Sequence record: NC_019404.1
Source of the DNA: Escherichia phage vB_EcoS_ACG-M12
Direction: 5' to 3' (one strand)
Length of the DNA: 46,054 nt
A program made the translations under genes and the position numbers. Below, in pieces: positions 1-46,054 of this stretch. The notes beneath the pieces were generated by a model, which saw nothing but the letters and a program-made list of their open reading frames with translations, was not told the origin of the DNA and made no database searches. The first letter of the stretch is position 1, and every line of letters begins with the position of its first letter.

Positions 1-138
1 TGAACTCTTTCTTTATATGCAAACTTGAAACAGGCGATTCTCATTTTTGTGTGATGCATTCGATTGAAAAAGTCAATAGATGAGAGAAAGAAAACGGGCA
101 ATTTACGCAACTTTTTGCAAATTAATCCTCGCCACAAG

Positions 139-400
139 GTTACATGTAACTTTAGTTATCGCGTGTAGATAATCTGCAATAGTTACGCATATAACGCCAA
201 ATCACGCGCTGGTTACAAATAAATCCCTTATATATAAACAACTTAGATTTATTATTATTATTATTATATATATGTAACTAATGTAACCATGTCATCGGGC
301 GCGTTGATTGAAAATCCTATATTGCGCGCGACTTTTATTTATATATTAGCGGAAGGTATAGCACCCCATTTAGGTCGGTTACAGCTGTCTACTCGGTTAC
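139..400. repeat. GTTAC/GTAAC iteron cluster with 12-bp perfect palindrome GTTACATGTAAC (139-150) and (ATT)5 run (251-265)
   Basis: GTTAC or GTAAC copies at about 139, 146, 182, 212, 274, 283, 378 and 396; AT-rich non-coding leader of the first + operon. Confidence 0.6.
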
Positions 401-478
401 ACTCGCAGGAATAAAGGTGTCAGCAAAATAATTTGTGTAAATTTTGAGTATAACGCTTGTCTACGCGTAATTGAGGTA

Positions 479-1309: not shown

Positions 1310-1379
1310 CACTTTTTGTTAAAACTCCATGGAGGGAGTTTGGCATAATAGCTTCATTGAAATGAGAGAGGGATTCAAA
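1305..1379 (+). promoter_or_regulatory. conserved intergenic cassette (box variant AATAGCACTTTTTGTTAAA; -10-like CATAAT)
   Basis: Box starts at 1305 and spans the stop of gene 1025..1309; leader CATTGAAATGAG precedes the ATG at 1380. Confidence 0.5.
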
Positions 1380-1460
1380 ATGTACTACGACGTTATCGCT
1401 GTTTGCCTGGTTGCCATTGTTGCTATTGTTGCAATTGTTAAGATTACGGAGAAGAAGTAA
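1380..1460 (+). CDS. tiny hydrophobic peptide (26 aa, MYYDVIAVCLVAIVAIVAIVKITEKK)
   Basis: ATG preceded by GAGAGGG; single predicted transmembrane helix; below the track length cutoff. Confidence 0.35.
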   Translation: MYYDVIAVCLVAIVAIVAIVKITEKK

Positions 1461-3486: not shown

Positions 3487-3561
3487 GCTCTGTTAGCTTA
3501 ATGGAAAAAGCCGCAGCCTTCTAAGCTGTTGATGGTGGTTCGACTCCACCACGGGGCGCCA
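3487..3561 (+). tRNA. tRNA-Arg(UCU)-like, 75 nt with encoded CCA
   Basis: Hand-folded cloverleaf: acceptor GCTCTGT/ACGGGGC (two G-U pairs), D-stem GCTT/AAGC with GG in the loop, anticodon stem GCAGC/GCTGT with loop CTTCTAA, T-arm GGTGG-TTCGACT-CCACC, discriminator G, CCA. Confidence 0.6.
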
Positions 3562-32096: not shown

Positions 32097-32115
32097 AATA
32101 GCACGAATTGCTAAA
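32097..32115. promoter_or_regulatory. isolated dyad box AATAGCACGAATTGCTAAA at the 5' end of the tail fibre gene, without a downstream -10 or leader
   Basis: Only copy not followed by a TATAGTTAC box and leader; lies between a TACAAT-like element and the SD of the minus-strand fibre gene. Confidence 0.4.
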
Positions 32116-32140
32116 GTGGATTGTAGCATCTTTAGGGCAT

Positions 32141-32162
32141 AAAAAAACCTCCCGAAGGAGGT
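32141..32162 (-). terminator. rho-independent terminator for the minus-strand primase transcript
   Basis: Reverse complement reads ACCTCC-ttcg-GGAGGT plus T7. Confidence 0.65.
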
Positions 32163-33088
32163 TAGTTATTCAATAAATCACTTGCCTTATATATCTTCTT
32201 CCTTATTCCGCTCTTGAATGAGTTTTCATCATTTGGTATTACCACATCAAGATTGCGATCATCAGCAACGGCGAGTAAATCAAAATCATGACGAGTACAA
32301 GCGACGCGTAACTTGTAGTCTCTAAGCGCATAAGCAACCATTTCCATGTTGTAACTGGAGTAGCAAACAAGCACACACCGGTTGCCAGTAGCAAGATGAA
32401 CGCGAACACCATCAATCCAATTATCGACCAGATAAGAGTACTCATCATCCTTAAGGGAACCAATAACAGAAACAGATTGGCGAGAATAATCTTTTGCAGC
32501 ATAACTAACATCTCCTTCCTCATTGATAAACATTACATTGCACATTTCTTCTGATATACCGTCACTATAAGCCATGAAGCACGGTATTGCGTGTATTAAT
32601 TCACCGGATTTTGTCCTACCAACATCAAATCCAAACTCGCTATAAATACCCTCGTATGTACTTAGCGGGGTTGATTCTACTCTTTCCGTCCTTTCCAGTA
32701 TCTCTAAGCATCTTTCGTGGTCAATCTGCGCGCCCATCTTGTATGGTGATGTCCTCGATGCTCTTTTGTTTGCTTTAGCTACTATCTCAACTGGAACCAG
32801 ATTTAACCAGTCACCTAATACATTTATACACTCACTAAAAGACTCTCCTCTTAGTTTCTGCACCCACAAAATTCCATCGCCTGACCCACACTGGTTGCAA
32901 ATGATTCCACCATCCCCAGGTTCACTAACTTTATCAGTCCACCTGCTACGGTCATTACCGCCACAATACAAGCATGGTTGATGCTTCTTAGTTTTAAAGA
33001 AGTTTGGGTCTGCCCCGCAAATCTGAACCATTGCGTCAGCCCATAAACCTTTCATCTTTTGTAGTACTTCTTTCTTATCGTGATTCAT
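32162..33088 (-). CDS. DNA primase-like protein with N-terminal zinc-binding motif (308 aa)
   Basis: CLYCGG-x17-CNQCG zinc ribbon near the N-terminus; start at the ATG 5 nt after GGAGG. Confidence 0.45.
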   Translation of the reverse strand: MNHDKKEVLQKMKGLWADAMVQICGADPNFFKTKKHQPCLYCGGNDRSRWTDKVSEPGDGGIICNQCGSGDGILWVQKLRGESFSECINVLGDWLNLVPVEIVAKANKRASRTSPYKMGAQIDHERCLEILERTERVESTPLSTYEGIYSEFGFDVGRTKSGELIHAIPCFMAYSDGISEEMCNVMFINEEGDVSYAAKDYSRQSVSVIGSLKDDEYSYLVDNWIDGVRVHLATGNRCVLVCYSSYNMEMVAYALRDYKLRVACTRHDFDLLAVADDRNLDVVIPNDENSFKSGIRKKIYKASDLLNN

Positions 33089-33750: not shown

Positions 33751-35745
33751 ATGCTTCCCGTAGAAAAACTCGTTGCTAACTTTGATAAGAGTCGCCTTGC
33801 AGAGATTAAGCGTGATTACTCATTTGGTGAGATAACTCCTTACGACTTTCAATGCGTGACATTTGATGCAATTGGTAAAGCAATTGGCAAGTACGAAGCT
33901 CCATTTATCGCAGACCTTTCTGTATCTGCAGGTAAGACAATCATCTTGGCGATGATTGGTAAGAGAATGGAGCAACTCGGCCTTCCTTATATGGTTCTTT
34001 CTCGCCAGTCAGAGATAGTTAGCCAGGATAGCGAGGAGCTTCGTAACTTCGGTATCCGTAATAGCGTATATTGCGCTGGCCTTAACGTTAAATCAGTTTA
34101 CTACCCAACCATAGTGGCAAGCGAAGGAACGGCAGCTAATGGGTTGTTTAAGGGACTTGGTGACTATGTTCCGGCAGTTATCGCTATAGACGAGTGCCAC
34201 ATGGTGGATCACATGGATATAGTCGAAGCAGAAGAGAACGAAGAAACGTTTGAGCAAATGAGCACCGCAAAAGGTGAGATGGTTTTCAAGGATGGTGAGT
34301 ATACTGGCTTAACTGGTACAGGTCGTTCGCAATACACTTTAATCATTACAGAGATGAAACGGCGTTGCCGTGAGAAATACAAGCGCGAACTACGCATCTT
34401 CGGTCTTACTGGTAGCCCGTATCGCGATAACAATCATATCGTGGTAAGCAACCAAAATATTCGAGGATTTTGGCGTAAGACGGTTATGCAGGTTCCAACT
34501 AATTACCTGGTGGATTTAGGGTTTGTTGTCCCAACCGTTTACGGTGAGGTTGGTGATTTGGGTTATGACCTTGCTGAGTTTACGCCAGATGGTTCTGATG
34601 GGGTTAAAGACTTCACGAAGAAAGACCTGAATGCAATGGAGGAGAAGATTCACCAAAGCCAATCTATGACACAAAAGATTATGCAGTTCGCAGCTAAGTT
34701 TATGGAGACGAGGAACGCAGCACTTGTTACCTGTTCCGGTAAGCGTCATTGCGAAGAAGCAGCCGCCGCTCTTCCTGAAGGTGTAACATGGGCTATAGTA
34801 ACCAACTCAACAGGCGAGAAGAAACGCCGTGAGATTCTAGCTGACGCATCTGAGGGTAAGTATAAATTCATCTTTCAGATTGGTTGCTTAACGACCGGTG
34901 TCAATGTCCCACCGTGGGACACATCAATAATTCTCCGTAAGGTTGGCAGCATTACATTGCTTATTCAGCTTTTGGGTCGTGGCATGCGCATCCTGAAGAG
35001 GAAACATAAAGAGATGGGAATGGTTAAAGATGACCATGTGGTATTGGACTTCGCAGGCACGCTTGATGATATGGCTGAGTTGTACTTTGACCCAATCATA
35101 GAGGAGGTTCAAGACCAGAAATTCAAGTCTTCTCGTAAAGGTGGTGATGATCCAAGAGTGTGCCCAGCATGTAGCTATGAGAACTCGCCATTTGCTCGTC
35201 GTTGTAATAATTTTATCGACGGTAAAAGGTGTGAGCACTTCTTTCAGTTTCGTACTTGTGATGACATTGAAGACCCACAGACAAAGGTTATATTAAAGAA
35301 GGGGTGTGGCGAGAAGAACGACATTGCTGCCAAAAACTGTAGATGTTGTGGTGAGATGTTAATTGACCCTAATGCAAAACTTTCCGGCAAGATGTACCGT
35401 CAGGGGGATTGGTTGCGAGTTTACGGATTTGGCATTGGTTTAACAAAGAATCAAACTGGCATAGTTGCCCGTTACGAAATCATGGCGCATAGTGGTCAGA
35501 AGTTCATTGCATATGAAACATTCTTTCCAGAAAGTGACCATCGAGTTTGCTCTGTTAAGTGGAAAGCATTTTGCCAGACTCACATACAGAACAAAACAGA
35601 GGCTTTTAGGATTGGTCGCTTGCGTAATGCGAAAATGATAATGACAAATGCCAGCCAGTTCCGTGAGCCAATGCGAGTGACTCATAGAAGAAATCAGAAA
35701 GGCCGGGATATTATAGCTAATAAATCTTTTACTATGGAGGATTGA
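33751..35745 (+). CDS. SF2 DNA helicase with C-terminal Cys-rich zinc-ribbon region (664 aa)
   Basis: Walker A SVSAGKT, DExH box IAIDECHMV, motif VI-like QLLGRGMR; multiple CxxC pairs at the C-terminus. Confidence 0.7.
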   Translation: MLPVEKLVANFDKSRLAEIKRDYSFGEITPYDFQCVTFDAIGKAIGKYEAPFIADLSVSAGKTIILAMIGKRMEQLGLPYMVLSRQSEIVSQDSEELRNFGIRNSVYCAGLNVKSVYYPTIVASEGTAANGLFKGLGDYVPAVIAIDECHMVDHMDIVEAEENEETFEQMSTAKGEMVFKDGEYTGLTGTGRSQYTLIITEMKRRCREKYKRELRIFGLTGSPYRDNNHIVVSNQNIRGFWRKTVMQVPTNYLVDLGFVVPTVYGEVGDLGYDLAEFTPDGSDGVKDFTKKDLNAMEEKIHQSQSMTQKIMQFAAKFMETRNAALVTCSGKRHCEEAAAALPEGVTWAIVTNSTGEKKRREILADASEGKYKFIFQIGCLTTGVNVPPWDTSIILRKVGSITLLIQLLGRGMRILKRKHKEMGMVKDDHVVLDFAGTLDDMAELYFDPIIEEVQDQKFKSSRKGGDDPRVCPACSYENSPFARRCNNFIDGKRCEHFFQFRTCDDIEDPQTKVILKKGCGEKNDIAAKNCRCCGEMLIDPNAKLSGKMYRQGDWLRVYGFGIGLTKNQTGIVARYEIMAHSGQKFIAYETFFPESDHRVCSVKWKAFCQTHIQNKTEAFRIGRLRNAKMIMTNASQFREPMRVTHRRNQKGRDIIANKSFTMED

Positions 35746-41871: not shown

Positions 41872-42236
41872 TAATGTGCATGGCTTTATCTGGATGCTCA
41901 GCAACTGAAGTCCTGACCGGATTGATTGGAAGTAAACCAGATGTCACTGCGCAGGTTGGAGCGGCTAACAATAAAGTCGGCGTTGGTGCTTCCGTTAGTA
42001 GCGACTCCAGCAATTCCAGTGAAGCCACTGTAAGGGATTCTAAGGTTGGGAGCCTGGATAGCTCAAGCAGAAAAAAGACCTCCGACAATTCAATTAAGGC
42101 ATCAACAATCACTGCCGAAAAGATTGAGATTACAAACAATGAATCATCATCACTACCGTGGATTGGTACTGGCGTTATGTTCTGCCTGGTTCTTATTCTT
42201 CTGGCAATTATCTTAAGACGTAAAAAAGCCCCTTAA
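41847..42236 (+). CDS. unimolecular spanin-like lipoprotein (129 aa)
   Basis: Lipobox ALSGC|S at the N-terminus plus C-terminal transmembrane helix LPWIGTGVMFCLVLILLAIIL; overlaps the endolysin 3' end, as for the T1 gp11-type u-spanin (from memory). Confidence 0.6.
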   Translation: MLKWIAALVMCMALSGCSATEVLTGLIGSKPDVTAQVGAANNKVGVGASVSSDSSNSSEATVRDSKVGSLDSSSRKKTSDNSIKASTITAEKIEITNNESSSLPWIGTGVMFCLVLILLAIILRRKKAP

Positions 42237-42251
42237 TAGGGGCTATATTTT
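42221..42251. terminator. bidirectional terminator between convergent genes
   Basis: AGCCCC-ttaata-GGGGCT flanked by A- and T-rich runs; overlaps the spanin stop. Confidence 0.55.
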
Positions 42252-42586
42252 TAGCTAAATAACTCGTCGTCAGTCATGTTTCCTATGTTCATCATTTCCT
42301 TTATGTACTTACTATCATAACCGTTCAGTGCTTCGAAGTTAAACTCAAAAGGCCTCTTCAAACTCCCTCTACTAACAAACTCACCACACTTACCATCAAT
42401 ATATCCTGAGCTTAACATCTTTGCGCAGAACTCCTTTGAAGCTGCACTGCAAAACTTCCGATGTGGCAAACCTGCCGCCTTGCTAAACCTCTCTGAATCT
42501 TTGTGCTTGTATATGAATCGCGCCAAATGCTGGCGCGTAAAATAACTGTAGGACTCGCAAAATCTGTATAAATCAAGAAGAAACAT
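42251..42586 (-). CDS. hypothetical protein (111 aa)
   Basis: ATG start; directly downstream of the DUF3987-like gene on the minus strand. Confidence 0.45.
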   Translation of the reverse strand: MFLLDLYRFCESYSYFTRQHLARFIYKHKDSERFSKAAGLPHRKFCSAASKEFCAKMLSSGYIDGKCGEFVSRGSLKRPFEFNFEALNGYDSKYIKEMMNIGNMTDDELFS

Positions 42587-42589
42587 AAA

Positions 42590-44173
42590 TCACCCCATTA
42601 CACGTGGATTAACATAAACACGGTCATCAATCATGCAAACGTAGTTACGTTCTTCAAGCATTGGGATTAAGTGGTCCTTAATCTTCGTCATTACACCGGC
42701 CTGAGATTCGAATGGCTTAACCTTTCTTGCTGACTCATACAGCGCGCGAAGGCTAACAAAACCTTTACCAGCCTTACCCATTTTCAAAGCCAGGTCGATA
42801 AGTTTATTCATCTCTGCGTTATCACCAGCATGACCTGCGGCATTAGCAGAAGATAAATATGTTTTGCTTAACTCGTTAAACATTAATACCGCCTCCTGCA
42901 TGGTTTCTAATTCAATCTCACGAGACTTTTTAGGATTGCCACCTTCTTCAGATACCCAATTGCGAACAGTATGAATAACCGAAGCTATACGGATTGCCTG
43001 CTTGTCAAATTTACCAAGTGCGCCTCGTAACATAGTGTGACTGTATTTACCTCCATCACGTAAGTGCGGTTCCATATCCTGGCGAGCACGGTTTAGATAA
43101 CGCATGGCTGAATCACTAATAGTTAGCTTAACATCCACCTCACTCATGATGTTGTGAATAAGTTTAAAGTAAGTCGCCTTAAGCGCTCCATCAATAGGTT
43201 CATAAGTTGAGCGACCTTCATCATCAACAAAAACACGTTCACCTAAGAATGATTTCTCACGAACAAGCAAAAAACGCTCTGATACACCGATACCGCGAGC
43301 ACCAGCATTCATGATTGCGTTGATTGTCTCATCTTGTGCAATTACAGAGATGCAACCCAGCGCAGTAAAAGACATGTTGTTTTCAGCGTTAGCACGAGCA
43401 ATAGAAACATCGCCAGAGTCCCATGCCTTAAGAACCAATTCACTGTTTGTCTTTTTGCTCCCGTCGCCATAAGTCATGCCTAATAATGAGTTTACAGAAG
43501 TTGCTTCATCAGATATTACAGCAAAGTTACCTTGACGGAAGTTAATTCGCGCAAGACCTTCTGGAGTTGTATCAGATACCGGAAAAACAACATCGCATAA
43601 CTTCTCTAACTTCTCCTCAAGATTCTCTTTATCCTCAAATAATCTCGCCATTTCAGAAGGTGATTGCTCCTGCTTCATTTCTTTAGCGAGAGAAGATAGT
43701 TTTGCCATAATCTTTTTTCGTTCACGCTTACGTTCCTCGTTGATTCTGTCTCGTTCAGCAATCATTGGCGCAGTTGCCAGGCTGTTAATTGCTGATTTAC
43801 CAGTTGAAGGAGGTTGGCTTGTAACAACATAAAGCGCGGTTGGCTGAGTTGTTCCGTGATACTCAACGGTAAAACGACCCAGCATTGCAGAAGATACGCA
43901 GCCTAAAAAGTGCATATAGGCAGAAGATGATGGGAACTGTACTGATCGGGCGATGTTGGCTGACAGCTTGCCTACCACATCAAAATCATTCCCGAGGCTT
44001 ATTACAGGATATTTATCATTGCAATTCTCAACCTCTACTGGGTCCTTCCAGAATGACTGAGCATATCGCATACCGTTCGCTTTAATTGCCACACGAAGCG
44101 GGGAGATGCCTTGCTGCTGCGCAATAGCCATAACCTGGTCAACACTCAACTTACTGGATTCGAACTCAAACAT
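42590..44173 (-). CDS. P-loop NTPase, DUF3987-like, putative replication/helicase-associated protein (527 aa)
   Basis: Walker-A-like YVVTSQPPSTGKSAIN; size; start at the ATG 10 nt after GGAG (track start is GTG). Confidence 0.45.
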   Translation of the reverse strand: MFEFESSKLSVDQVMAIAQQQGISPLRVAIKANGMRYAQSFWKDPVEVENCNDKYPVISLGNDFDVVGKLSANIARSVQFPSSSAYMHFLGCVSSAMLGRFTVEYHGTTQPTALYVVTSQPPSTGKSAINSLATAPMIAERDRINEERKRERKKIMAKLSSLAKEMKQEQSPSEMARLFEDKENLEEKLEKLCDVVFPVSDTTPEGLARINFRQGNFAVISDEATSVNSLLGMTYGDGSKKTNSELVLKAWDSGDVSIARANAENNMSFTALGCISVIAQDETINAIMNAGARGIGVSERFLLVREKSFLGERVFVDDEGRSTYEPIDGALKATYFKLIHNIMSEVDVKLTISDSAMRYLNRARQDMEPHLRDGGKYSHTMLRGALGKFDKQAIRIASVIHTVRNWVSEEGGNPKKSREIELETMQEAVLMFNELSKTYLSSANAAGHAGDNAEMNKLIDLALKMGKAGKGFVSLRALYESARKVKPFESQAGVMTKIKDHLIPMLEERNYVCMIDDRVYVNPRVMG

Positions 44174-44244
44174 CTTAATGCTCCATCTCGTTAATGTGCG
44201 GGTATTATATAACACCCGCTCAGTATGTCTTTATCTTTTAGTGC

Positions 44245-44598
44245 TTATTTGTATTGCGCCTCGAATTTGTAAGTCTCGCAGAGCGTCTTGAAGCCAACTT
44301 CCTCATCTCGGTAAAGCTGCCAGGCATTGCCTTCTTTGTCATAGATGTAACCAGCATTTTGGCCCAGGCCAGCGTGCATGTTTACCTGATATCTCTTTCC
44401 TTCCGCGAACACTTTAGAGACGCCACTCTTATGGTTAACCTTTGTGCAATACAGAGTCTTGGTCTTGATGTATTTGCCGCGCTCTGTAAGGTTCTTCCAT
44501 TTTCCATTAACCTTGATTTGCTCTACACCATCTTTAACGCGAGCCTTGAACAAATCGTTATCGCTTGAAACCCAGTGTTTTGTAATCGTAGTAGTCAT
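44245..44598 (-). CDS. hypothetical protein (117 aa)
   Basis: In-frame ATG after GAGAGGG; track start is further upstream. Confidence 0.4.
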   Translation of the reverse strand: MTTTITKHWVSSDNDLFKARVKDGVEQIKVNGKWKNLTERGKYIKTKTLYCTKVNHKSGVSKVFAEGKRYQVNMHAGLGQNAGYIYDKEGNAWQLYRDEEVGFKTLCETYKFEAQYK

Positions 44599-44599
44599 T

Positions 44600-44761
44600 T
44601 TAAGCCCTCTCTTTCGTTTTCCACATAAATTTGTTTGGTACTGATTTGCGAACGATTCGCACAACAATCTTATCTGTCTTTTGCACTAAGCCGTAAATCT
44701 TGCCGTCAAGTGATGAGCGGTATACTGCCTCTTCCATCTCGTCGTAAAAGTTGTCGAACAT
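44600..44761 (-). CDS. hypothetical small protein (53 aa)
   Basis: ATG after GGAGATGAGAA; the frame ends at TAA immediately before the next ATG; below the track cutoff. Confidence 0.3.
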   Translation of the reverse strand: MFDNFYDEMEEAVYRSSLDGKIYGLVQKTDKIVVRIVRKSVPNKFMWKTKERA

Positions 44762-44832
44762 TTCTCATCTCCCGTCTCGATGGAAAGATAATGCCGTATC
44801 TCACATAAATGCTTTTAGCAATTCGTGCTATT
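44762..44832 (-). promoter_or_regulatory. conserved intergenic cassette, minus orientation
   Basis: Reverse complement of 44814-44832 reads AATAGCACGAATTGCTAAAAGC; leader CCATCGAGACGGGAG. Confidence 0.45.
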
Positions 44833-44975
44833 GCGCGCCTTTTGTATCGCCTTAAGCATAATCTCATGACTCTCAAGCAAGTCCTCGCGGAACCAGTCGC
44901 CGCAAGGCCAGCCCTTTCCGCTGTATGCGCTGATGACCTCGAGATCGAAATAATTTATCTCAGATGGTAGTAGCA

Positions 44976-45218
44976 TCATTTCACCTCATCAAAAGTTGCA
45001 ATCCCAGGAATAAACATTCCAACCTTCCAGCCTGCAATGGCAATCCATCCAGAATCGTGCTTGTGCGGTCGATCAGCGCCTTTAATTAACCACTCGTTCG
45101 GGATTGTCTTGCCGTTAATGATTAGAGGCTCAGCGTCGTATACAGAGCCTTTTACGAATGGTGTTAAGGCTTTCTTGTCAGTGCTATTGATAACGTTAGT
45201 GCAGATTATTTTAGTCAT
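44976..45218 (-). CDS. hypothetical protein (80 aa)
   Basis: ATG start; overlap-coupled. Confidence 0.4.
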   Translation of the reverse strand: MTKIICTNVINSTDKKALTPFVKGSVYDAEPLIINGKTIPNEWLIKGADRPHKHDSGWIAIAGWKVGMFIPGIATFDEVK

Positions 45219-45402
45219 TTACAACCTCGTACTCACCTTTATAAACAGCGACCTCTTCATTCACATTGTTGACAATCACTGCTAAACAAAGAGCACCCAA
45301 ATATTTTACCACTTCGTACTCGCAGCCAAGCGTCAGACCATAGTCCTCACATGAACGTCCACTGCAATCTAAATCTTCGAATTTAACTAACTTAATTTTC
45401 AT
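45211..45402 (-). CDS. hypothetical small Cys-containing protein (63 aa)
   Basis: ATG start; CSGRSC and GCEYE motifs. Confidence 0.4.
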   Translation of the reverse strand: MKIKLVKFEDLDCSGRSCEDYGLTLGCEYEVVKYLGALCLAVIVNNVNEEVAVYKGEYEVVND

Positions 45403-45412
45403 ATCTCAATCC

Positions 45413-45592
45413 TCAAATAAATGGCAAGCATTCGACGCAGCCAAGCCCATCACAGCACATGAATTCATCTTCTGACTGGAACTGCTTTGCTAAATCAATG
45501 TCTAGCCTTCCGCGCAACACAAGGTCGGTGTAATCTTCATTAAGCCCAATCAGTGCGCACTCGTTACGTAACTCATCTTTATTCTTTTTCAT
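45413..45592 (-). CDS. hypothetical small protein (59 aa) with CCDGLGCVEC motif
   Basis: ATGA overlap with the upstream gene; below the track cutoff. Confidence 0.3.
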   Translation of the reverse strand: MKKNKDELRNECALIGLNEDYTDLVLRGRLDIDLAKQFQSEDEFMCCDGLGCVECLPFI

Positions 45593-45756
45593 TTATCCTG
45601 GCCTTTTAAATTATGACGCTCTCTCAGAACTTCAACCCATTCTTGCGCGTCATTCTCTCTCATGAAGAAACTTAACTTTGGGTACTTGTGAAACCCTTTA
45701 AGTTCAACTATCCAATGGCCACCTTCGTAACTATAACTAACTTTCTTCTCTGTCAT
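45589..45756 (-). CDS. hypothetical small protein (55 aa)
   Basis: Open frame from ATG to the TGA that overlaps the next ATG; below the track cutoff. Confidence 0.3.
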   Translation of the reverse strand: MTEKKVSYSYEGGHWIVELKGFHKYPKLSFFMRENDAQEWVEVLRERHNLKGQDK

Positions 45757-45995
45757 TTTGTTACCTTTTGAGTTTTTTTTGTTATCGACATCTCTTCAAC
45801 GTACTCGCTACAACTCGGGATTTTACTCCCGGCCCGGCATCCTAACAAAAGGACCCGCTCGGCGCTTTGGTGGGTGAGGTAACGCTTCCTCACATTGCGC
45901 GGTATCATTTACCCTTTTTAGTCCCTTTCGGGAGTGACTCAGAGTCTGCTACCGTGTCGATGAAATGAAGTATACGCACATCGATTCAATATGTC

Positions 45996-46014
45996 TTTAG
46001 CAAAAAGTGCTATT
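45996..46014 (-). promoter_or_regulatory. dyad box, minus orientation (reverse complement AATAGCACTTTTTGCTAAA), at the head of the terminal minus operon
   Basis: Followed in the minus direction by about 240 nt of GC-rich structured leader before the first small gene. Confidence 0.4.
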
Positions 46015-46054
46015 TATCAGATTACCCAGAACCACTGGTATCATAAAGGCATTA

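Follow-up and report, generated by a model that had tools for sequence, protein, structure and literature searches.

A conserved structured RNA domain at the 5' end of a predicted leftward transcript in a T1-like Escherichia phage

Introduction

What is carried by a GC-rich segment of about 240 nucleotides (nt) that separates a promoter from the first conserved start codon of a phage gene block? This question is raised by the minus-strand block at 42251-45756 in the genome of Escherichia phage vB_EcoS_ACG-M12 (NC_019404.1), where such a leader lies between a short repeat, termed the dyad box, and the start codon at 45756. The window analyzed here is the full genome record of 46,054 bp. The annotation used was that of GenBank ON081052.1 (Escherichia phage vB_EcoS_SCS31), which shows 100% identity to the queried block, the same coordinates and the same length of 46,054 bp; in all comparisons, SCS31 denotes the window sequence. 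A previous reading of the letters alone, referred to below as the sequence-only reading, had described a box, a GC-rich leader, a series of open reading frames (ORFs) and a P-loop protein with the motif PPSTGKS, and all of these were found as described. The box and the DUF3987 helicase encoded in the block belong to already known kinds, and the new part is apparently the leader, which contains a conserved RNA domain of 186 nt.

A conserved RNA domain in the leader

The following features, all on the minus strand, form the promoter-proximal part of the block.

45995-46014, minus strand: dyad box, a 21-nt promoter-associated repeat (AATAGCACTTTTTGCTAAAG) with 5-bp arms (TAGCA/TGCTA) and a 5-nt spacer
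45969-45997, minus strand: predicted sigma-70-type promoter with the -35 element AAGACA, a 17-nt spacer and the -10 hexamer TATACT (45969-45974)
45779-45964, minus strand: conserved 186-nt structured RNA domain (covariance model match of 238 bits, covariation, strand test, no Rfam match)
45753-45908, minus strand: annotated coding sequence (CDS) for 51 amino acids (aa; UOX39753.1) inside the RNA, probably not a gene
45757-45783, minus strand: A-rich linker with the Shine-Dalgarno (SD) sequence AAGG (45764-45767), between the closing helix P1 and the first start codon
45589-45756, minus strand: 55-aa ORF with a predicted beta-beta-beta-alpha fold, which accompanies the RNA in 12 of 12 copies

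The first copies of the leader were obtained by BLAST from ECH1, four Veterinaerplatzvirus T145P1 assemblies, vB_Ec-G8 and IMM-001. Six further contigs were retrieved via homologues of the downstream 55-aa protein, and one more (L042) via a pattern scan of metagenomes. A covariance model (R1) was built on the first five copies and was then used to find all copies. This search yielded 12 copies (11 distinct sequences), each of them exactly 186 nt long and with zero insertions or deletions (indels). Because the copies are equal in length and free of indels, aligning them is trivial, and the model had no influence on the result. Compared with the SCS31 copy, the RNA shows 89-97% identity, whereas in the same sequences the promoter spacer shows 60-77% identity and the adjacent 55-aa ORF 69-98% nucleotide identity, with an amino acid identity of 52% in L042.

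In all 12 copies the RNA starts 7-8 nt past the -10 hexamer, which is itself kept in 12 of 12 RNA-bearing sequences, and 25-33 nt lie between its end and the downstream start codon. Transcription would begin at about 45961-45962, and because of the distance of 7-8 nt the predicted first transcribed base (about 45961) is the first base of P1. The core of the leader has a GC content of 0.52 (genome, about 0.43) and a minimum free energy of -59.8 kcal/mol. Its z-scores of -1.9 to -2.5 versus dinucleotide shuffles are suggestive, and indecisive when taken alone.

The structural model of the RNA comprises six helices, P1 and five hairpin arms, with eight helical segments. P1 is a closing helix of 7 bp, in which 45955-45961 pair with 45784-45790, and it encloses the five arms. 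The long arm P2/P2a/P2b is capped by a GAAA tetraloop at 45926-45929, arm P3 carries an invariant 8-nt loop (AAGCGUUA), and P4 is a long, GC-rich arm; the remaining arms are P5 and P6. Between the arms lie the near-invariant single-stranded junctions CGCAAU, CCACCAAA, AGUUG and AAGAGA. P1 is paired in most predicted ensembles, with a probability of being unpaired of 0.06-0.10 in seven out of ten; for L005, L036 and L042 this value is 0.27-0.51.

This fold is borne out by the variation among the copies. In the alignment of the 12 copies, canonical pairing was found in 96.8% of the 561 pair cells, as against 38-41% when the partners were slid by 1-3 columns. Double (compensatory) substitutions occur at seven pairs in five helices, and the observed covariation score was reached by none of 500 shuffles. 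Several of these compensatory changes arose separately and in different clades. In P2b, one clade has U-A in place of C-G at pair 34-41, and another clade shows this replacement at the neighboring pair 33-42; in P2, A-U is changed to G-C at two pairs together, and in P1 C-G is changed to A-U. Pair 113-124 is changed from C-G to U-A in L040 alone, and L042 joins the P1 of clade 2 with the P2 of clade 1. Furthermore, 53 G·U cells were counted versus 10 A·C cells, the latter confined to two marginal pairs; due to this asymmetry the RNA was assigned to the strand of the block. Folding energy was dropped as a strand test because the antisense strand folds as well and the measure is uninformative. 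The RNA thus is a conserved domain that folds on its own and forms the 5' end of the predicted transcript, and the hairpin-prone leader of the sequence-only reading proved to be a structured RNA by covariation.

Additional contacts and resemblances were considered and rejected. Kissing loops between P4 and P5 as well as the pairs 138-145 and 17-59 receive no support from the variation. Mimicry of the tRNA-Lys anticodon loop by the P4 loop was discarded, this loop being the most variable part, and GGA motifs of the CsrA type are too few and are located in stems.

The leader as coding sequence or known RNA

The public annotation places a 51-aa CDS within the RNA, and a protein-coding gene missed in the leader would have changed the picture drawn above. 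In favor of such a protein, SCS31 possesses an ATG-initiated ORF and ECH1 a 46-aa version of it, and an ATGA overlap with the start of the next gene is present. However, the ATG occurs only in SCS31 and ECH1 (2 of 12), and the other ten homologues have ATA or ACG at this position. Indels of 1-2 nt in the 3' A-run shift the frame, the substitutions track base-pairing and not codon position, and the ATG lies inside helix P2 without an obvious SD sequence. The CDS showed no Pfam or PHROG match and was not called in the annotation of ECH1. No conserved ORF was detected in any frame of the leader across the 12 sequences. That the leader encodes the annotated protein is the least credible of all explanations considered in this study, and the CDS is probably spurious, which corrects the public annotation.

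The leader also matches no described RNA. A scan of 4 kb against Rfam 15, as the sequence-only reading had proposed for the leader, gave nothing in the leader at E ≤ 1, and a scan of 261 nt at E ≤ 10 gave chance-level matches only (at most 21.8 bits versus gathering scores of 42-50). ARAGORN detected no tRNA or tmRNA in the leader, and no description of a non-coding RNA (ncRNA) was found for Drexlerviridae in the literature. The RNA belongs to no Rfam family and is apparently undescribed. The leader represents a real structured RNA family with a narrow distribution.

The dyad box and the promoters

A single dyad is weak when taken alone. With up to three mismatches, however, 13 copies of the box occur in the genome versus 0 expected by chance, namely at 1305, 5965, 13124, 18845, 25734 (minus strand), 32097, 33662, 36162, 37203, 39121, 39690, 40778 and 45995 (minus strand). 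All copies are intergenic, 12 of the 13 are co-oriented with the downstream gene, and each of the 13 is followed after about 19 nt by a -10-like hexamer (TATAGT, CATAAT or TATACT). Several of the box promoters also have in common the initial transcribed sequence CATCGAAACGA(G/A)ATGAGG after this hexamer. The box was found in nearly all related loci. The dyad box is hence a promoter mark of the whole genome; the sequence-only reading was right about its presence, and its treatment as a property of this block does not hold, since the copy at 45995-46014 is one of 13 copies of a known repeat.

For TLS and other T1-like phages, a 21-nt intergenic direct repeat with the consensus aaATAGCACnnnTTGnTAAAA has been described, which may serve as a UP-like element, an enhancer or an operator (PMC11447400). 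The box of the window fits this consensus, and in both cases many intergenic copies are oriented with transcription, so that no difference from the known repeat exists (PMC11447400). The fixed distance of about 19 nt to the -10-like hexamer and the shared CATCGAAACGA are added here. The true -35 element is weak (AAGACA-like), which puts the dyad at about -38 to -52, as would be expected of an activator site or UP site.

Two copies of the box deserve mention on their own. The box at 32097-32116 (plus strand) is the sole copy against its neighbors, the tail-fibre and primase genes, both of which lie on the minus strand, and it is followed by a terminator-like hairpin (CCTCCCGAAGGAGG). The annotated CDS 1329-1460 (plus strand) begins 5 nt past the box at 1305-1324 and upstream of the predicted -10 hexamer; if the box promoter is real, the start codon of this CDS is probably mis-called.

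An accessory cassette of the RNA and the 55-aa ORF

The sequence-only reading regarded the leader as that of the whole operon. A structured RNA is indeed present, but its role for the operon as a whole is contradicted by the close relative MM01, whose operon is 90% identical in the aligned parts, which make up 72% of the query. MM01 has the same box promoter, followed by a leader of about 25 nt and a different first gene, and lacks both the RNA and the 55-aa gene. The first gene encodes a 91-aa protein with a signal-peptide-like N-terminus (L050:440-858; MK373793.1, 42739-43157). In 29 further Drexlerviridae loci, the box promoters are likewise normally followed by leaders of about 25-30 nt. 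Apparent long leaders at other box promoters mostly turned out to be overlooked short ORFs and were rejected; an ORF-free long leader was found only in Rtp and possibly in L025. L012 and Rtp carry yet other first genes in the promoter slot.

Since MM01 possesses the promoter without the RNA, the RNA and the 55-aa ORF constitute an accessory cassette and not an operon-wide leader, and because relatives maintain the homologous operon without it, the RNA is dispensable for the operon as such. The promoter-proximal slot is a hot spot for accessory cargo, and it would correspond to the sort of site at which phages carry accessory genes.

The 55-aa protein was modelled by AlphaFold2 (AF2) with a predicted local distance difference test (pLDDT) value of 89.9. 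The nearest structural neighbors are non-significant (E ≥ 0.1) and include DCL4, DHX29, DGCR8 and RDE-4, which contain double-stranded RNA-binding domains, as well as an AP2 DNA-binding domain. This gives a weak hint that the modelled protein may bind nucleic acids.

Proposed mode of action and alternatives

From the position and the fold of the RNA, the following course of events is proposed. Host RNA polymerase would start at the T1-type box promoter (box at 45995-46014, -10 hexamer at 45969-45974), and the first approximately 180 transcribed bases (45961-45784) would fold into a self-contained domain, in which P1 joins the 5'-terminal bases to bases about 170 nt downstream. The RNA would fold independently of the ribosome-binding site and work as RNA itself by binding a protein or a small ligand. 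That the identifications made above hold together with an RNA that acts as a self-contained module appears rather probable to us. The leading version of this mechanism, a serious candidate that we nevertheless place somewhat below the probable, is a stable ncRNA or ribonucleoprotein (RNP), possibly formed with the 55-aa protein, in which the RNA would be retained at the 5' end or freed by cleavage in the single-stranded A-rich linker. It is favored because P1 joins both ends of the domain, because the junctions are more conserved than the ORF, and because no expression platform is present.

The second-ranked explanation, possible but rather unlikely, is a riboswitch-like cis-regulator, whose aptamer, by folding in dependence on a ligand or protein, would govern how the 55-aa mRNA is translated or degraded and possibly also read-through into the operon. 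The RNA resembles the aptamers of the lysine, cobalamin and M-box riboswitches in its site in the 5' untranslated region, its P1-closed junction of several helices with near-invariant unpaired nucleotides, its GNRA tetraloop and its size of about 180 nt; its conserved structure is supported by covariation, and it always lies directly upstream of the same ORF at a similar spacing. In contrast to these aptamers, it matches no Rfam riboswitch model, no recognizable expression platform was found, and the downstream gene has neither a metabolic annotation nor a known function from which a ligand could be guessed. The P4 loop CCUUUUG is complementary over 7 nt to the SD region CAAAAGG in clade 1, but this complementarity is absent in clade 2 (L005, L036, L037), and pairing of the P4 loop as an anti-SD element was therefore rejected. 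An RNA serving the entire leftward transcript, either as a put-like processive antiterminator or as a generic 5' stabilizer or enhancer of translation, is improbable. Put antiterminator RNAs are elements of about 70 nt with two hairpins that cause read-through of downstream terminators. As with HK022 putL and putR, a cis-encoded structured RNA is made directly after an early phage promoter and occupies the very 5' end of the transcript, which P1 would bury. However, with 186 nt and six helices the leader RNA differs from these two-hairpin elements, terminator prediction on the minus strand from 45756 to 42251 gave no internal intrinsic terminators, the helicase gene has its own promoter-like site, and MM01 as well as most Drexlerviridae run the homologous operon on a leader of about 25 nt; a simple stabilizer, moreover, needs neither 186 nt nor invariant junctions.

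A little less credit still is given to an action of the conserved sequence as DNA, for example as origin, pac site, operator or hairpins for the loading of primosome or helicase. The element adjoins the AT-rich divergent intergenic region of about 670 bp with its GTTAC/GTAAC repeats and holds the palindrome GACTCTGAGTC; its antisense strand folds equally well, and G·T pairs are tolerated in single-stranded DNA. Against this stand the excess of G·U over A·C cells, the GNRA tetraloop and the compensatory changes in five helices, which are typical of a transcribed RNA. In addition, changes that preserve RNA pairs disrupt the palindrome in L040, L037 and L038, and the element is missing in close relatives, which must still replicate and package their DNA. 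A spread by recent recombination without any function, the structure being that of any GC-rich 186-mer, would agree with the narrow distribution, the high identity and the modest z-scores. It is nonetheless quite improbable, since the flanks of the cassette are far more diverged (spacer 60-77%; ORF down to 52% at the amino acid level) than the RNA with at least 89% identity and no indel, and since variable stem positions change in pairs.

Several observations weigh against an independently acting RNA module and should be considered together. Thermodynamically, the z-scores are modest, and folding of the antisense strand is about equally good. When the number of pairs with a double change was used as the measure, 116 of 500 shuffles equalled or exceeded the observed value; the covariation is carried by only about 6-7 events in a small and closely related family, with all 12 copies at least 88% identical; and the almost invariant 3' half is uninformative for or against its predicted helices. 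The distribution is narrow, comprising 9 GenBank phage records and 6 metagenome-derived contigs. Three exact or degenerate leader patterns gave 0 matches in IMG/VR, a pattern scan of 100,044 bacterial species genomes returned 0 copies, and BLAST gave no match to the leader RNA in E. coli genomes and plasmids, from which it also follows that the RNA is not a mimic of a host or plasmid RNA at the sequence level. The start site, the 3' end and the stability of the RNA are inferred, and no terminator or processing signal that would define a free ncRNA was found. For the riboswitch version, the missing terminator, the unpaired ribosome-binding site (neither this site nor the linker paired with the RNA domain in the predicted ensembles) and the unconserved anti-SD sequence mean that an expression platform is lacking. 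Finally, the search for folds similar to that of the 55-aa protein in the PDB gave no significant match (best E = 0.1).

A second RNA-like element in Rtp

In the same slot, Rtp contains an ORF-free, GC-rich segment of about 190 nt between two tandem box promoters. Its core of about 85-90 nt (element at L011:151-245; AM156909.1, about 45975-46069, minus strand) is 85-88% identical in intergenic DNA of Seuratvirus and Vequintavirinae phages, such as WildeMaa (Seuratvirus; L043:1501-1595) and UPEC06 (Vequintavirinae; L044:1501-1588) as well as in L046-L049. The element thus occurs upstream of unrelated genes in three unrelated groups of coliphages. A few compensatory changes were detected in it (CCGG/CCGG to CCAG/CUGG and UCCC/GGGG to UCUC/GAGG). 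It has no Rfam match and no match in the scan of bacterial genomes.

Like the RNA of SCS31, the Rtp-type element is ORF-free, GC-rich, conserved and located downstream of a box promoter, in Rtp in the same slot. Both share the sub-motif GAGUMAC-UYCC-GAAN-GG, and a 15-nt identity (TGAGTCACTTCCGAA) exists between the Rtp element and the IMM-001-type RNA. In contrast, no global similarity is present (no match of model R1 at E ≤ 10), and the core of the Rtp-type element is shorter. Model R1 also revealed no distant homologues in the 29 other Drexlerviridae loci and in the loci of Rtp, Seuratvirus and Vequintavirinae. The occurrence of the Rtp-type element suggests that structured RNAs are exchanged among coliphages.

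The candidate DUF3987 helicase and the other proteins of the block

Counted from the promoter, the block contains ORFs of 55, 59, 63, 80, 53, 53 and 117 aa, followed by one of 527 aa and one of 111 aa, and the start and stop codons of most of them overlap or abut. Apart from the 55-aa ORF, the features are as follows.

45413-45592, minus strand: 59-aa protein, PHROG 9053, with an invariant C-terminal CCxGxGCxxC (here CCDGLGCVEC; ..MCCDGLGCVECLPFI)
45211-45402, minus strand: 63-aa protein, PHROG 14327 (..DCSGRSCED..; CSGRSC not kept in homologues)
44976-45218, minus strand: 80-aa ORF
44815-44976, minus strand: 53-aa ORF
44600-44761, minus strand: 53-aa ORF
44245-44598, minus strand: 117-aa ORF, counterpart of Rtp69, T1 gp07-like gene
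44204-44231, minus strand: internal promoter-like site (AAGACA-16-TATAAT, 10 of 12) with a degenerate box before it, upstream of the helicase gene
42590-44173, minus strand: 527-aa DUF3987 protein, candidate MCM-like (superfamily 6, SF6) AAA+ helicase, homologue of T1 gp09 and Rtp67
42251-42586, minus strand: 111-aa protein, homologue of T1 gp10 and Rtp66, PHROG 2794, encoded immediately after the helicase gene both here and in Rtp
42227-42244, both strands: bidirectional intrinsic terminator (AGCCCCTTAATAGGGGCT), which divides the convergent lysis block from the minus-strand block and marks the end of the latter

The 527-aa protein, for which the sequence-only reading had proposed a DUF3987-like P-loop type linked to replication, matched Pfam family PF13148 (DUF3987) with 140.2 bits (cut-off 27; E = 1.2e-40; residues 95-445) and PHROG 2373, annotated as DNA helicase, with E = 1e-246. 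The record of Rtp notes Rtp67 as similar to T1 gp09. The Walker A motif QPPSTGKS comprises residues 120-127, and Q120-P-P-S-x-G-K-S127 is invariant in 23 homologues down to 34% identity, as are S221, E223 and A224 in the Walker B-like ISDEA. The AF2 model has a pLDDT of 86.6. Each of the 50 matches listed by Foldseek in the PDB is either an MCM subunit or a complex that contains MCM (Mcm2-7, archaeal MCM); the probability is at least 0.99 for 45 of these 50 matches and 0.72 for the lowest, with low template modelling (TM) scores of about 0.33. A search of PDB sequences with the 527-aa protein gave nothing. A Pfam match to ADDT (amino acid:DNA transferase) at residues 405-453 (E = 0.038; 14 bits versus a cut-off of 26) was discarded as probable noise.

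DUF3987 proteins have been placed in SF6 as MCM-like replicative helicases that carry a winged helix at the C-terminus (PMC4889955), and the PriCT-DUF3987 protein AgaPH is an ATP-dependent 5'->3' helicase (PMC11724360). The proposed link to replication is thus backed by the family as a whole and by one proven member, and no non-replication family was matched. The 527-aa protein is like these proteins in its DUF3987 match, its Walker A and B-like residues and its MCM-like predicted fold (PMC11724360, PMC4889955). At the position where the winged helix of the family is described (PMC4889955), it has a C-terminal module of helices and strands (helices 451-468, 475-482 and 494-508; strands 472-474, 512-515 and 518-521), which, as part of the whole model, would be compatible with a winged helix. 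The 527-aa protein differs in that it has no PriCT domain and is neither fused nor adjacent to an AEP or DnaG primase, an association that is common and not a strict requirement. ATP-dependent DNA unwinding has been shown only for AgaPH (PMC11724360); the 527-aa protein is a candidate helicase. As the sequence-only reading had stated, its gene is separated from the primase and helicase genes: the primase gene (Zn_Ribbon_Prim; 32162-33088) lies about 9 kb away, beyond the lysis block, and the genes for an SF2 helicase (33751-35745) and for a VRR-NUC nuclease are likewise about 9 kb away. According to the model and the family match, the T1 gp09-type protein is likely an MCM-like replicative helicase.

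The minus-strand series of ORFs is present as the sequence-only reading described it; its interpretation as a single operon is less probable, because the helicase gene has a promoter-like site of its own and the block therefore probably comprises more than one transcription unit. In Tempevirinae-like relatives a full box is located about 72 nt upstream of the DUF3987 gene. Homologues of the 111-aa protein were found in most DUF3987 loci fetched. With regard to the cysteine motifs, that of the 59-aa protein was invariant in homologues, so that this protein may bind metal; the CSGRSC of the 63-aa protein, also singled out before, was not conserved.

Genome setting

The phage is T1-like and belongs to the genus Guelphvirus (Drexlerviridae, Braunvirinae). 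The genomes of T1-like phages have terminal redundancy and are circularly permuted in part (PMC11447400). The window comprises the whole genome record, opened at this point, so that the "terminal" position of the block claimed before is an artefact of linearization. The block is presumably the early, leftward, replication-associated gene block of a T1-like phage. It diverges from plus-strand genes that begin at 528, with an intergenic region of about 670 bp in between (45965-46054 joined to 1-527). At the other end of the block, a weak Rfam match to SpF51 at 42223-42260 is due to the terminator hairpin at 42227-42244.

The divergent intergenic region (window positions 120-420, plus 45965-46054 over the record junction) is AT-rich, with TTATTATTATTATTATATATATG at about 250-275, and contains about eight GTTAC/GTAAC half-sites, including GGTTACATGTAAC, as well as a direct repeat of TCGGTTACA at 375 and 393. 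It is a candidate for an origin, pac or regulatory region. Records of T1-like phages are conventionally opened in this region. Furthermore, a single phage tRNA, tRNA-Arg(TCT) at 3487-3561 (plus strand), is located just upstream of the terminase genes and is the sole ARAGORN call in the window.

Significance

Virulent T1-group phages of E. coli serve as model systems and are of importance as agents of phage therapy or contamination, and no structured regulatory or non-coding RNA was found described for this group in the literature searched. In a phage family without a polymerase of its own, the T1 gp09-type protein can now be named as the likely replicative helicase of MCM-like type. The RNA of 186 nt has a complex junction, is more conserved than the neighboring genes and has no relative in Rfam; elsewhere, such elements proved to be riboswitches, ribozymes or RNP scaffolds. 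Its function is directly testable, because the accessory slot that holds it belongs to coliphages that are easy to manipulate (SCS31, ECH1 and G8). It is a speculative view, less likely to be right than wrong, that this RNA is the founding member of a novel class of functional RNAs borne by phages, in the form of a riboswitch or of an ncRNA that binds a ligand or protein, and that it is carried as a mobile accessory cassette in the promoter-proximal "moron" slot of T1-like phages. Together with the Rtp-type motif of Drexlerviridae, Seuratvirus and Vequintavirinae, it might then point to a so far unrecognized pool of structured RNAs, exchanged horizontally, which virulent coliphages may use for host takeover or counter-defence.

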